This document shows positions 7,691 to 46,353 of a DNA stretch of 49,689 nt, piece by piece (positions within the stretch are counted from its first letter, which is position 1; every line of letters begins with the position of its first letter). The stretch is from sequence record NC_105788.1. One strand, written 5' to 3'. The notes beneath the pieces were generated by a model that had not been told where the DNA came from, ran no database searches, and saw nothing but the letters and a program-made list of their open reading frames with translations. Both the position numbers and the translations under genes were made by a program. The DNA comes from a phage.

Positions 7691-7867
7691 TTAATCTATC
7701 GCAATAAATTCCAGATAGCTGCCGTTCAGAGGAGCCTGGATTGCTGAACCTCGCCCGTCGTAAATCTCAAATAATCCCCCACCGAAATCATAACCAACAC
7801 TATAGATCTGATTTACGCGGAATGGAAGTGTTTTGGAGTCATTTCGGATGCACTTAACTCGTTTCAT
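7691..7867 (-). CDS. hypothetical small protein (58 aa, below ORF-track cutoff)
   Basis: manual translation MKRVKCIRNDSKTLPFRVNQIY...; AAGAGGA RBS 6 nt upstream; coordinates approximate. Confidence 0.4.
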   Translation of the reverse strand: MKRVKCIRNDSKTLPFRVNQIYSVGYDFGGGLFEIYDGRGSAIQAPLNGSYLEFIAID

Positions 7868-7939: not shown

Positions 7940-9082
7940 TCCTGTCATTTCTGGACGATATATGAAACGACCGATTTCCCCAAACTGCTTATCGTAAACA
8001 ATTACCGCCGCCTGGCGATACGATCGCCACCCTCCGCGTGCTGCGTATGCATCTTTCGCGCCTAACTGGCCGTGTACTTCATCAATACCAAGCGAGTGCT
8101 CAGTGATTGTCTGGTGATGCCAGTGACCACTATGAGTATACACATACTTGCTCTCGCCGAAGTCTGATCGGAAATCTGCCGCCATTGCTGCAAGTCTCGT
8201 ATCTGCCTTCTTCATAGTGTGACCGTGAGTGTATCCCAACAAAGTATTTCCCCAACGAGTCTTATGCAGAATCATAGGACTAACATCAACGAATACTCGC
8301 GGCTCGTCTTCATAATATGCCGACATTGCAGCTCGCAGCCAAATCATCCCAGACTGATCGTGGTTCCCTTCGATAACCTGGACCTCGACTTCTTTGTGTT
8401 TCATAAGCATTTTGTCGATGGCGCGACGCACAGAACGAATCGCTACATGCACCAATTTCGCATATCGTGAATCCTGATCCAGAACGTGACCGCTTGCCGG
8501 GGTAACAGCGTCAAGGCCGTCAGAGTGAAGGAAGTCGCCACCGATTAACAGAACAGCCTTCTCTGCGTTCGGCGCAATATCGATCGCGTAATTAAAGAAG
8601 TCGCTAAGCACTTTTTCCGCTACGTCGGTGGAATAGTTCTCACCGCATTCATGCTTATGAGCAAGCGCGCCAATATGGAGATCGAATACCGGATAGAGTG
8701 CCAGCTTACCCATCGCTGTCGTAAGCCCTTGCGAGGTTAGTAGCTCGGTTGGCTTTGCTCGCGGCAGGTCTTCACAGAATGCAATACGCGCCGCTTCCAT
8801 CATTGCCGCAATCTTCTCACGGTCCTGATCGGTTTTAACCCAGCGCACTACCTCGGTCCCATCTCCGCGAATCATCGTTGATGTGCCTTTTACCATGAAT
8901 CCTTCCGGTACGTTCTTAGCAACATGCTCGTTACCGTGGAAGTGGCCTTCTTTTGCCAATTTTGCGTGGCGAGCTTCAACCGTGCGAATGTGCATACCGT
9001 ACTTTTCCGCGATCTCGCGAAGTGTAAGTCCGTTCATGCGTTCTTCGATAAGTTGCTCGGTAGTGATTTTAGATTGTGACAT
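7931..9082 (-). CDS. HTH domain fused to calcineurin-like metallophosphoesterase (Mre11/SbcD-like nuclease or PPP-type phosphatase)
   Basis: N-terminal helix-turn-helix-like segment (LTLREIAEKYGMHIRTVEARHAKL); metallophosphoesterase motifs DLHIG, GGDFLHSD, GNHD, GHTMKK, GHWHH; AAGGA RBS. Confidence 0.65.
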   Translation of the reverse strand: MSQSKITTEQLIEERMNGLTLREIAEKYGMHIRTVEARHAKLAKEGHFHGNEHVAKNVPEGFMVKGTSTMIRGDGTEVVRWVKTDQDREKIAAMMEAARIAFCEDLPRAKPTELLTSQGLTTAMGKLALYPVFDLHIGALAHKHECGENYSTDVAEKVLSDFFNYAIDIAPNAEKAVLLIGGDFLHSDGLDAVTPASGHVLDQDSRYAKLVHVAIRSVRRAIDKMLMKHKEVEVQVIEGNHDQSGMIWLRAAMSAYYEDEPRVFVDVSPMILHKTRWGNTLLGYTHGHTMKKADTRLAAMAADFRSDFGESKYVYTHSGHWHHQTITEHSLGIDEVHGQLGAKDAYAARGGWRSYRQAAVIVYDKQFGEIGRFIYRPEMTGSH

Positions 9083-19664: not shown

Positions 19665-19693
19665 GCAATCACACTAACGACGAGGACATGCAA

Positions 19694-19921
19694 ATGAAAA
19701 AGTTAATCACCATTATCGCTGCGGCATTCATTCTGACTGGTTGCTCATCGATGCCTGAGCGCACTTGCACGGCAATTTATGAATCAGGTGGAGCGGAGTA
19801 CTCGGTTTACGTTTTTGGCTCTAAGATGCGCGGAAAGGAGATGGTATTGCGTGCTGGATACCCATTCTCCTTCAACTATGTATCAGAGAAAAACTTCAAA
19901 TCTCACGATTGCTCGATATAA
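19694..19921 (+). CDS. cor: Cor-like small outer-membrane lipoprotein (superinfection exclusion candidate)
   Basis: about 75 aa, signal peptide with lipobox LTGC; own promoter and terminator; position next to fibre genes matches cor of T1/phi80-type phages. Confidence 0.6.
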   Translation: MKKLITIIAAAFILTGCSSMPERTCTAIYESGGAEYSVYVFGSKMRGKEMVLRAGYPFSFNYVSEKNFKSHDCSI

Positions 19922-43483: not shown

Positions 43484-43594
43484 TCAGTATCTCCCTAAAA
43501 ATAATTTCGCCACATTGATGATGGTGGAGTTTATGATTAACAGAATGATAACTGTTAGTACCGGATGTGCTGCAATAAATTCGTATAGGTTCAC
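43484..43594 (-). CDS. tiny hydrophobic peptide (36 aa, GTG start, below ORF-track cutoff)
   Basis: GTGA overlap with phosphatase stop, AAGGAG RBS; predicted single TM helix; coordinates approximate. Confidence 0.3.
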   Translation of the reverse strand: MNLYEFIAAHPVLTVIILLIINSTIINVAKLFLGRY

Positions 43595-44202
43595 TTCAAT
43601 AACTCCTTGCACTTAATGCAAATTTTCTCACCAAATGGCGGTAGCGGCTCAGATGGTTCATGATTGCAAACCTCATCTACCCCGTGAGATTTTAAATGAT
43701 CGTGGACTTTATCGCCATAGTCAACTACAGCATAAGTGGTTATTCCAAGCGACCGGAATAATGGAATAATTTGCGGTGAGTCATCCCATGCCGCCAGAAT
43801 GTTCTCAATGCCGATCGCGCGCACCGCCTCTTCTTTCATTACTGTGTCTTTCCGGTTATCGGTGTGTGGTCGCATAATCAGGTAATCATATCGAGCGCCG
43901 TGATGCTTGAGCCATAACTCAGATGCGTAACGCACCTCATCACTTCGCCCGGTTAAAATGATCACATGATACCCAGCGGCAAACATAGAGTTCATCACTT
44001 CAATCGTACTCTTGATTGGGTTATCAAATATTGCCGCTCGGTTAAACTCTGACCAGCTTTCAGTTAGGTGCAAATCCTTTGTCGGTAGCAGGTGAAGTCT
44101 ACCTGATCCGTCACTAAGTGTCCCGTCAAAGTCAAAGATTGCTACGCGGCGAGTACCGAGAAACAGGTTGATTGTCTGGCCCCAAATGGTAATTTTATCC
44201 AT
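43591..44202 (-). CDS. HAD-superfamily phosphatase
   Basis: N-terminal DFDGTLS (DxDxT) motif; C-terminal Cys cluster; CAATCAGAGGA RBS. Confidence 0.6.
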   Translation of the reverse strand: MDKITIWGQTINLFLGTRRVAIFDFDGTLSDGSGRLHLLPTKDLHLTESWSEFNRAAIFDNPIKSTIEVMNSMFAAGYHVIILTGRSDEVRYASELWLKHHGARYDYLIMRPHTDNRKDTVMKEEAVRAIGIENILAAWDDSPQIIPLFRSLGITTYAVVDYGDKVHDHLKSHGVDEVCNHEPSEPLPPFGEKICIKCKELLK

Positions 44203-44806: not shown

Positions 44807-45008
44807 TCGTTTTAATAGTGATGCAAAAATAATTTTTTAAGCACGTCACCACGCGCGCTGAATCGACTTGTGGGAGCCTTAAAATTTCGTGGACCAATTG
44901 CACTGCCGACACCTCAGATTTGTAGTAGTGTGCGATTCTTGAGGTATTTGGGCGCATTCCTTCCACTGCGTCACGCGCTGCATCTTCTGTTGTCATGATA
45001 GTAGCCAT
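44790..45008 (-). CDS. hypothetical protein (72 aa)
   Basis: ORF track. Confidence 0.45.
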   Translation of the reverse strand: MATIMTTEDAARDAVEGMRPNTSRIAHYYKSEVSAVQLVHEILRLPQVDSARVVTCLKNYFCITIKTNSTNC

Positions 45009-45112
45009 AAAACACCCTTAAGAGATAATGTCAGGACCAGGAGGCAGAATAGCAACTCCTGAAATGATGGCGGCTCGTTATTCCAGTTGGAAAAGTCTGG
45101 CATAGTGTTTTC

Positions 45113-45148
45113 TCCAAAAGAAAGGGGAACCGTTCAGAGCCGATTCCC
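45113..45148 (-). terminator. hairpin plus T-run after 45157..45795 gene
   Basis: GGGGAATCGG..CCGTTCCCC followed by TTTCTTTT on minus strand. Confidence 0.45.
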
Positions 45149-45156
45149 CATTAAAA

Positions 45157-45795
45157 TTACATAATGAAAAACAGCGAAATCGCAGCCACCAGGAGAACAA
45201 TCGCAACAGCCAGGCCGGATAAATCCGCTTTCTCTTCAAACTTCATTGCTGGCTTGCGGTCAACATCAATAGGCTTGACGTTGCTAATCTTGCTGGTGTT
45301 GATCTTGCCGTTGACGCGGAAAGTTCGCTTACGCTTCTTGCCGAACGTTGCAAACTTAGTACCGCCGCTATTCCAGCGAAGACCCTCGCCGTTGTGCGTT
45401 ACGGTTGCAATGCGGTTGCGGCCCGTGTCGTCGGTAATTACAGCTGTGTGCTTTGCGTGCTCGGTCGGTACATCGTAGATATTGCCAACGGTAAATTTTT
45501 TGGTGTTATCGCTGATACATTCGAATTTCATAGTTTTTACCTCTTTATTATGCAGTTGGTTGATTGCTTCGATTACGTCGTTAAATTTAACACCATCCAC
45601 GATTCGATGGAAGATATATTTTGAGCTACCGCCATAAGGCAGGAAAATTTCCTGATATTCGTGACGCCGTACAACGTTCACGTTGCAACCGTTCTCATCA
45701 GTAATGATGAAGCTGTCATCATTTACGCGAACACCTTTGTAAGTTTTTCCCCACTTAAAACCAGATCCGCTACTTGATACGCACTCAAATTTCAT
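45157..45795 (-). CDS. tail-anchored membrane protein with two tandem homologous domains
   Basis: two repeats both starting MKFEC(V/I)S with shared I(I/V)TD(E/D).G.N core; C-terminal TM helix LSGLAVAIVLLVAAISLFFIM. Confidence 0.55.
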   Translation of the reverse strand: MKFECVSSSGSGFKWGKTYKGVRVNDDSFIITDENGCNVNVVRRHEYQEIFLPYGGSSKYIFHRIVDGVKFNDVIEAINQLHNKEVKTMKFECISDNTKKFTVGNIYDVPTEHAKHTAVITDDTGRNRIATVTHNGEGLRWNSGGTKFATFGKKRKRTFRVNGKINTSKISNVKPIDVDRKPAMKFEEKADLSGLAVAIVLLVAAISLFFIM

Positions 45796-46079
45796 GGTCT
45801 AACCTTCCTGTAAGGCTTGATTGATAACATCACGTATTGCGTGAAGTCGCATTCTTGCTCGTCATAACCGCGATTGATGTATGGCGTCACGTCTGTAACA
45901 TCGGACACCCTTGCGTGAACTTCCCACCCGGTAAATTCGTCACGATCGAACTCGCGTAGCTCAAGGATATCACCAACCTGGAAGTTGCGGTCATTGACGC
46001 GGAACTCTGCCGTTTTGGTTCCGTTCATTACACCAATGAAATGTACCGGGGAGATTTTTAACTTATGAGTTTTGCTCAT
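45792..46079 (-). CDS. ASCH/PUA-like small protein (DUF3850-like)
   Basis: pattern KISPVHF..V..G.KTAEFR.NDR.FQVGD.L.L.E typical of ASCH-fold proteins (recalled, not searched). Confidence 0.5.
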   Translation of the reverse strand: MSKTHKLKISPVHFIGVMNGTKTAEFRVNDRNFQVGDILELREFDRDEFTGWEVHARVSDVTDVTPYINRGYDEQECDFTQYVMLSIKPYRKVRP

Positions 46080-46269
46080 CTTTCTTTACCTCGAATGTCA
46101 CGTTCCAGAATTTATTGCCGCATGAGTGATAGATTACGTCCTGAGACGTGAGTTCGTGCAATGCGTGCCCGATAATCTCCATGCGGTCGTTCGGTGCCAG
46201 TCCGCGAAGCGATTCACGAAGGCGTGAGGCCTTGTCGTAAATCTGCCACTGAGTTAGTCGTGTAGCCAT
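46063..46269 (-). CDS. hypothetical protein (68 aa)
   Basis: internal ATG preceded by AACCAATCAGAGGA. Confidence 0.45.
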   Translation of the reverse strand: MATRLTQWQIYDKASRLRESLRGLAPNDRMEIIGHALHELTSQDVIYHSCGNKFWNVTFEVKKDEQNS

Positions 46270-46334
46270 AGCTGATTCCTCTGATTGGTTGCCTTGCTTC
46301 AATAAGGCCACTATATCAAATGGACTTGCGGAAG

Positions 46335-46353
46335 GTTTAGCAATTCGTGCTAT
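46335..46353 (-). promoter_or_regulatory. conserved box (minus strand ATAGCACGAATTGCTAAAC)
   Basis: box copy overlapping stop of a small unannotated ORF. Confidence 0.6.

Follow-up and report, generated by a model that had tools for sequence, protein, structure and literature searches.

We examined a 49,689-nucleotide (nt) stretch of phage DNA (sequence record NC_105788.1), referred to in its full length as the window, and focus here on one gene of its minus strand (45157..45795), which encodes a 212-amino-acid (aa) protein with two small barrels and a predicted C-terminal tail anchor. The best explanation overall, to which we assign a probability of roughly 0.4, is that this gene specifies a membrane-tethered binding adaptor made as two products. 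A long form of 212 aa, carrying the first barrel domain (D1), the second (D2) and the anchor, would be translated from the first ATG by coupling to an upstream ASCH gene, and a short form of 124 aa, comprising D2 and the anchor, would be translated from Met89. The protein would enter the membrane by its tail anchor and keep its N-terminus inside, tethering the barrels at the cytoplasmic face of the inner membrane. There they could capture a host, or possibly a phage, protein or peptide and hold or block it, with D1 adding a second binding site or modulating the short form.

The 639-nt region is 100% identical to OL770108 (Escherichia phage CLB_P3; Drexlerviridae, Tunavirinae, Tunavirus), and 64 other T1-like phage records match it at 80-95%. 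The gene lies within a block of small genes upstream of, and on the same strand as, the terminase genes, and in the CLB_P3 record its product, UNI73364, is annotated as a hypothetical protein. It matches phrog_10580 (E 3.1e-132, residues 1-212 on profile positions 1-212), a PHROG without known function. PADLOC and NCBIfam gave no matches to the protein, searches of the literature by accession and by family name turned up no study of it, and the family stayed without annotation when a T1-like phage was re-annotated in 2026 with the help of structure. Across 12 distinct full-length genes, 80-88% identical overall, the ratio of non-synonymous to synonymous differences (pN/pS) is 0.21, a sign of purifying selection and therefore of a real gene. 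D2 is the most constrained part and the conserved core of the family (0.07); the D1 barrel stands at 0.21, and linker plus anchor at about 0.36 (linker 0.37). The family, already catalogued as a hypothetical protein, is a conserved, uncharacterised accessory gene of T1-like phages; what is new here is its link to DUF6501 and DUF7244, the conservation of its tail-anchor architecture, the fusion that turned leader into linker, and the likely start inside the ORF.

Two barrels, a basic linker and a C-terminal anchor

The preliminary description of this locus, made from the sequence alone, proposed a 212-aa product with two homologous domains, a Lys/Arg-rich linker and a single C-terminal membrane helix, and this outline agrees with our analysis. 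The protein divides into four parts: D1 barrel and helix (residues 1-88), D2 barrel (89-153), linker (154-192) and hydrophobic helix (193-212).

45157..45795, minus strand: whole gene, predicted tail-anchored two-barrel protein of 212 aa, from the open reading frame (ORF) listing, with an ATG start (PHROG 10580; UNI73364)
45598..45795, minus strand: D1 barrel, residues 1-66, six β strands predicted by AlphaFold2, aligned to D2 by hhalign
45532..45597, minus strand: D1 C-terminal helix and junction, residues 67-88, with a helix at 71-83 in the model
45337..45531, minus strand: D2 barrel, residues 89-153, six predicted strands, predicted local distance difference test (pLDDT) about 87-93 for most
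45220..45336, minus strand: disordered Lys/Arg-rich linker, residues 154-192, 12 Lys/Arg against 5 Asp/Glu
45160..45219, minus strand: predicted C-terminal transmembrane anchor, residues 193-212, from hydropathy, with nothing after it

D1 and D2 both begin MKFEC(V/I)S and both contain the motif (I/V)ITD(E/D)xGxN. Comparison of residues 1-88 with residues 89-212 gave a BLASTP match at E 5e-5 (29% identity over 63 residues) and a Smith-Waterman score of 56, against 25.4 +/- 4.6 in 2000 shuffles, none of which scored as high; profiles built from the D1 and D2 homologues aligned with an hhalign probability of 97% (E 8.8e-11, columns 1-48). The halves are therefore homologous, as had been proposed. 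The homology is limited to the first 48-60 residues of each half, after which D1 has a sixth strand and a helix, and the repeat period is 88 aa, yet the second barrel spans only about 65 aa and ends near residue 153. An AlphaFold2 model built with a 31-sequence alignment places the D1 strands at residues 2-8, 18-25, 28-32, 38-43, 50-53 and 60-66 with pLDDT of about 80-92. A single-sequence model (pLDDT 39) was discarded as useless.

When a profile of residues 1-164 was run against 1.84 billion representative proteins, no more than 10 were retrieved: members of the family itself, three anchored relatives with a single barrel, and two proteins with multiple repeats, P0049 (270 aa, four repeats) and P0050 (704 aa, six repeats). 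The latter two consist of tandem copies of the same barrel type but, unlike the phage protein, have no membrane anchor, and they clear the Pfam thresholds as DUF6501 and DUF7244 proteins. Aligned by hhalign to their ten repeats, D2 scored 97.9% (E 5e-13) and D1 95.2% (E 2.4e-8), the similarity spanning only the first 40 or so residues. Judged from these profile comparisons, D1 and D2 are remote relatives of the DUF6501/DUF7244 small barrels. InterPro puts DUF7244 in the SH3 clan (PMC13164509), and an SH3-type fold is plausible for both domains. Two archaeal repeat proteins that a deep search also returned, P0052 and P0053, were treated as spurious because their match rests on low-complexity 'xxDxxGR' repeats.

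The window holds one more protein of this kind. A standalone 58-aa DUF7244 (SH3-clan) protein, encoded at 7691-7867 on the minus strand directly upstream of the holin-endolysin-spanin genes, matches Pfam at E 2e-28 (98.5 bits); a protein of this type adjoining the T1-like lysis cassette has been proposed to be a lysis accessory (PMC13164509). It resembles the two-barrel protein in being a small barrel with an MK-x-x-KC(I/V) start, a D-x-G hairpin and a link to the DUF6501/DUF7244 repeats, and differs from it in being soluble, without linker or anchor. Together with D1 and D2 it makes three barrels of this type in the phage. A phmmer search of each half against all ORFs of the window revealed no further paralogue, the standalone gene itself being matched only at E 3.7.

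Among viral structure models (BFVD), Foldseek matched only family members and uncharacterised phage proteins. The BFVD set includes proteins of 63-81 aa from other Drexlerviridae (Sfin-2, EK99P-1, SU57, vB_EcoS-95 and isim) that superpose on one barrel with template-modelling scores (TM-scores) of 0.6-0.86 normalised to the target. Given this good superposition, the labels 'DNA methylase' on the Sfin-2 protein and 'minor capsid protein' on that of isim are probably wrong.

Beyond D2, residues 157-192 have pLDDT below 50, and the linker, with a net charge of about +7, varies in length and sequence across the family. The terminal stretch (residues 193/195-212) has a mean Kyte-Doolittle hydropathy of 2.9-3.1 with no residue C-terminal to it, and both AlphaFold2 runs predicted a helix at 186-211. 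Every homologue found keeps this anchor, though its sequence is not conserved, and in three divergent subfamilies 0-4 residues follow the hydrophobic stretch. The protein begins with the polar sequence MKFECVSSSGSG and has no N-terminal signal sequence; most members carry 4-7 Lys/Arg within the 20 residues preceding the helix and 0-4 residues following it. The lack of a signal peptide, the basic residues before the helix and the absence of anything behind it together predict a tail-anchored protein with its N-terminus inside, an arrangement that would leave both barrels on the cytoplasmic side of the inner membrane, linked to it by about 40 flexible residues.

Among bacterial inner-membrane proteins with a C-tail anchor, ElaB, YqjD and YgaM of Escherichia coli and TssL share the topology predicted for the phage protein, with a cytoplasmic N-terminal part followed by a single C-terminal helix. 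TssL, a type VI secretion protein, is inserted by YidC (PMC3426401), and the analogy suggests that the phage protein may be inserted post-translationally. No sequence or fold relationship to ElaB, YqjD, YgaM or TssL was found, so that the likeness would be one of mechanism, not of family.

A probable single-barrel ancestor and a probable start within the reading frame

Homologues were found in about 70 phage records (44-58 protein clusters, nearly all of them from contigs close to 50 kb in length), all from T1-like phages of Escherichia, Shigella and Citrobacter; measured against the 522 genomes cited in PMC13164509, the family is absent from most Drexlerviridae. They show three architectures. 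Most Tunavirus genomes encode two barrels in 212-220 aa; a second group has one barrel and a long linker in 124-145 aa (T1 ST68, IME347, P0046, P0048 and P0051); and a third, of the SRT8 type, has one barrel and a short linker in 101-104 aa. Common to the family as its core are one small β-barrel, a linker that is flexible and basic, and a transmembrane helix as the very last element. The single-barrel anchored proteins measure 124 aa in T1 ST68, 104 aa in SRT8 gp48 and 126 aa in IME347, and metagenomic relatives are built likewise. Residues 89-212, which make up the short form, are 81% identical to T1 ST68 (YP_003876, 'CPTT1_010'), a hypothetical protein of 124 aa that has the same barrel, basic linker and anchor, the same ribosome-binding site and ATG, and a downstream terminator, and that differs in lacking D1 and the upstream 68-aa and ASCH genes and in having a direct-repeat element immediately in front.

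D1 was never seen alone among the homologues; it always stands in front of D2. It scores 56 against its own D2 and 69-77 against barrels of the SRT8/P0051 type, and since it is no closer to its neighbour than to these outgroup barrels, D1 is an old paralogue rather than a recent copy of D2. The internal tandem duplication put forward in the preliminary description thus survives as homology between the halves, which do align, and falls as a recent event within the gene: single-barrel homologues exist, and the duplication is missing from T1, SRT8 and IME347, all of which keep the anchor.

The DNA of the junction points to how the two barrels were joined. The pattern GAAGCA..CAACCAACTG..GAGGTAAAA is common to the D1-D2 junction and to the T1 region upstream of ST68, and the last codons of D1, GAAGCA-ATCAACCAACTG-CATAATAAA-GAGGTAAAAACT-ATG, are matched in alignment by the non-coding ST68 leader of T1, GAAGCACGACAACCAACTG-GAGGTAAAATTT-ATG, a leader of the type that in this phage stands behind a repeated intergenic element. 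We therefore read the two-barrel form as the product of a fusion in which an old paralogous barrel was joined to a single-barrel gene that already existed, through the former 5' leader of that gene. On the simplest reading, the single-barrel gene is ancestral, and in Tunavirus an upstream barrel ORF later came to be read through the old leader into D2. For T1 this means that the 68-aa gene, the ASCH gene and D1 were either never present or all lost. D1 has been lost repeatedly among these phages.

Several features of related genomes bear on this history. Aligning T1 (L003) 2421-2500 with window 45532-46353 shows that exactly the 68-aa gene, the ASCH gene and D1 are absent from T1. The T1 junction resembles a hybrid of the leader that follows the direct repeat (ttattgaagca...) and the D1-D2 junction (...caaccaactg gaggtaaaa), and since GAAGCA-N2-3-CAACCAA is common to both sources, a deletion through microhomology is possible. 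IME347 has two copies of the direct repeat 1010 bp apart, flanking the ASCH block, and in phage SH2 (KY985004, 4695-5498) the gene is annotated in a 267-aa version with a longer C-terminus.

The former gene start appears to have been retained inside the fused reading frame, where two features stand out.

45539..45546, minus strand: internal Shine-Dalgarno sequence AAAGAGGT, 7 nt upstream of the Met89 ATG (45529-45531)
45514..45624, minus strand: nucleotide-conserved block, codons 58-94, about 110 nt, defined by third-position diversity around the internal start

The Shine-Dalgarno signal is identical to the GAGGTAAAA-N3-ATG that starts T1 ST68, and it is near-invariant in the 12 genes, with one synonymous change, GTA>GTC, at its last base. 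Third-position diversity in codons 58-94 is 0.080, compared with 0.271 elsewhere (permutation p < 5e-5), and pS is about threefold lower (0.114 versus about 0.36); no other contiguous block of the gene is equally low in third-position diversity. RNA structure was rejected as the cause, given that the block is less structured than its shuffles (z +1.2), as expected around a start site. Whether the block is a degenerate copy of the direct repeat is not a claim we make, since only its 3' leader part aligns convincingly. In phage Chapo, D1 codons 1-58 are deleted and the equivalent of codons 59-88 is kept between the ASCH stop and the D2 ATG; KanT1 carries a 174-nt remnant of D1 followed by an intact D2 ORF of 375 nt; and T1 expresses exactly the D2-anchor ORF as a separate gene. 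The retention of a T1-like Shine-Dalgarno sequence and ATG, the drop in synonymous diversity, and the preservation of block and D2 ORF where D1 is deleted or broken together suggest two products: CLB_P3 probably makes both the 212-aa protein and a 124-aa protein equivalent to that of T1.

Such a dual start, with two in-frame initiation sites in one ORF, separate ribosome-binding sites and two membrane proteins as products, is known from lambda S105/S107 and has been proposed for the TLS holin (PMC11447400). In those cases the two forms differ by a few residues, whereas here they would differ by an 88-residue domain, and the second start, unlike those of the holins, would descend from the start of a formerly separate gene.

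Possible roles of the anchored barrels

SH3-type barrels are usually binding modules. The gene appears to be dispensable, given that D1 has repeatedly been lost and that the family is absent from most Drexlerviridae, and this, together with the predicted tethering of the barrels in the cytoplasm, leads us to favour an adaptor that would serve as an accessory in host takeover or counter-defence. A more specific version, in which the start of a former gene, now buried in an ORF, yields two isoforms whose ratio or mixed oligomers tune such an activity close to the membrane, seems to us improbable.

Four other functions or interpretations have to be set against the adaptor. The preliminary description suggested superinfection exclusion or targeting of the host envelope, and a membrane-anchored, dispensable gene of a lytic phage, situated upstream of the packaging genes, does invite the idea that the protein disturbs a channel or host factor required by incoming T1-like DNA. 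The early expression assumed in that description has gene position as its basis. T4 Imm and P22 SieA are small membrane proteins that act in exclusion, and they share with our protein, as does Cor, that they are small, dispensable and envelope-associated. However, no homology to any of the three was found, no exclusion family of Pfam, PHROGs, NCBIfam or PADLOC was matched, and both folded domains are predicted to be cytoplasmic with nothing in the periplasm, unlike the known domains with such roles. Moreover, the phage already encodes Cor (phrog_1119, E 4e-30), an outer-membrane lipoprotein, and we consider exclusion an unlikely function. The cor gene itself lies at 19688-19921 on the plus strand, the strand opposite to the neighbouring tail genes, and its product has the lipobox LTGC. 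It is similarly doubtful that the barrels and polybasic linker fix phage DNA, RNA or ribosomes to the membrane. The charge of the linker would suit such a tether, as would translational coupling to an ASCH-type 'RNA-binding' gene; small SH3- and KOW-like barrels often bind RNA or ribosomes, and phi29 p16.7 and the tail-anchored ribosome binders ElaB and YqjD of E. coli offer analogues. Yet the linker of SRT8-type members is short and much less basic, T1 retains the gene without the ASCH gene, and the Foldseek matches to ribosomal proteins fall short of significance (E at least 7e-3, TM-score 0.13). Very unlikely, in our view, is a modulator of lysis timing, in which the long and short forms would act from the cytoplasm on the pinholin or the signal-anchor-release (SAR) endolysin in the manner of a dual-start holin and antiholin. 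The standalone DUF7244 barrel in the lysis cassette (7691-7867), with its proposed accessory role (PMC13164509), and the richness of the anchor helices in Ala, Gly and Ser speak for this idea. Against it, the gene lies about 37 kb from that cassette in a separate transcription unit with its own terminator, it resembles the standalone barrel only marginally (hhalign probability 6.7%), and no holin profile in Pfam or PHROGs matched the protein, the lysis genes adjoining 7691-7867 instead (record 560-1664).

The conserved block allows a further alternative, namely that it is not a translation signal but an internal promoter of D2 or a boundary that favours recombination between D1 and D2 alleles, and that only the full-length protein matters in this phage. 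Its conservation extends about 95 nt upstream of the ATG, beyond the needs of a ribosome-binding site, it contains an invariant extended -10-like sequence, TGTTAAATT, and D1 and D2 allele types are variously combined among the homologues. On the other hand, a promoter scan found no canonical sigma-70 promoter in the block on this strand, T1 starts the same ORF with a matching arrangement of Shine-Dalgarno sequence, spacer and ATG, and an internal promoter would still yield the short form; we rate this alternative as having little chance of being right.

Several points nonetheless weigh against the two-product adaptor. Its role as a dispensable accessory adaptor in host takeover or counter-defence is a tentative guess from architecture, and the very basic linker would also suit binding to nucleic acids or anionic lipids. 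The synonymous conservation could reflect an internal promoter, a D1/D2 recombination boundary or gene conversion, and sequencing errors may account for some of the 'split' variants: one or more frameshifts are present in L019 and in L021, and we did not use these two loci as evidence. The Pfam model DUF7244 (PF23896, SH3 clan) scores the protein at 17.5 bits (E 0.0043), below the cut-off of 27. Finally, the remote-homology and structure searches called for in the preliminary description returned DUF6501/DUF7244 relatives and predicted barrels, but a Foldseek search of solved structures in the PDB gave nothing significant, with no match under E 1e-3 (best E 7e-3, TM-score about 0.13), and a D2 profile searched against the sequences of solved structures found nothing below E 0.8. 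The case for an SH3-type fold is hence one of remote sequence links and a clan assignment. The top Foldseek matches, to ribosomal uL6 (TM-score about 0.13), were rejected; others, at E 0.16-0.4, were to tandem SH3, KOW and Pif1-SH3 domains, and querying with the whole chain of a flexible two-domain model depresses such scores.

T1-like phages are both common laboratory contaminants and candidates for phage therapy, and about half of their genes are without known function. One such gene now has a concrete and testable description, with a predicted tail anchor and a barrel fold that it has in common with a proposed lysis accessory. We know of no described phage protein with a tail-anchor architecture. 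The gene also offers a clear case of a 5' leader converted into coding sequence with the start signal probably retained. Should the two-isoform reading and a host target both prove true, the ST68 family would be a new type of membrane-proximal factor in host takeover or counter-defence, and its members phage membrane effectors of a new functional class, working from the cytoplasmic side; otherwise this is an ordinary accessory gene. The results touch on no long-standing open question.

The presumed transcription unit and its surroundings

The gene is the last of a presumed three-gene unit bounded by the following features.

46310..46353, minus strand: direct-repeat box ATAGCACGAATTGCTAAA (46336-46353) and -10-like TATAGT (46310-46315), heading the unit
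46063..46269, minus strand: first gene of the unit, 68 aa, phrog_18601, absent from T1
45792..46079, minus strand: DUF3850/ASCH-type 'RNA-binding protein', 95 aa (PF12961, E 3e-16; phrog_986)
45124..45149, minus strand: intrinsic-terminator-like hairpin and T-run, 8 nt past the stop codon, from a terminator scan

The stop codon of the ASCH gene overlaps the start of the two-barrel gene (ATGA). Gene order is conserved in CLB_P3, IME18, T1, SRT8, IME347 and Chapo, where an ASCH gene or a direct-repeat element is followed by the barrel gene and a terminator, upstream of a pnk-like gene; in T1, SRT8 and IME347 the element directly precedes the single-barrel gene. In T1 and in Chapo, the annotation marks the homologous hairpin as a rho-independent terminator.

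The 18-nt direct repeat ATAGCACGAATTGCTAAA occurs in the window in seven perfect copies, and in 15 when up to three mismatches are allowed, compared with 0.09 expected. The sites are at 1615, 2980, 3496, 3996 and 49313 on the plus strand and at 7940, 9596, 9928, 15002, 41082, 42913, 44286, 44806, 46353 and 47079 on the minus strand. The repeat holds an inverted repeat, TAGCA-N5-TGCTA, and two-thirds of the copies (10/15) have a -10-like hexamer exactly 22 nt after TTGNTA (TATAGT, TATAAT, TATGAT, TAGAAT or TATCAT, each with at least five of six matches), so that the palindrome is centred near -42; a GC-rich hairpin occupies the spacer of several copies. This fixed spacing suggests that repeat and hexamer may form an activator-type promoter. 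The same repeat has been reported from phage TLS, without a known function (PMC11447400).

Farther downstream, the product of 43591-44202 (minus strand, 203 aa), called 'polynucleotide kinase' in related records, matches only the PNKP HAD phosphatase domain (PF25109, residues 20-159); no kinase domain was matched in the domain search, and the product may be a phosphatase only. Just past the terminator, an ORF of 36 aa (44993-45103, minus strand; MPDFSNWNNEPPSFQELLFCLLVLTLSLKGVLWLLS) without a PHROG match encodes a product with a C-terminal hydrophobic stretch; it is an annotated gene in CLB_P3, and ST67 of T1 (111 nt) has the same size and position.

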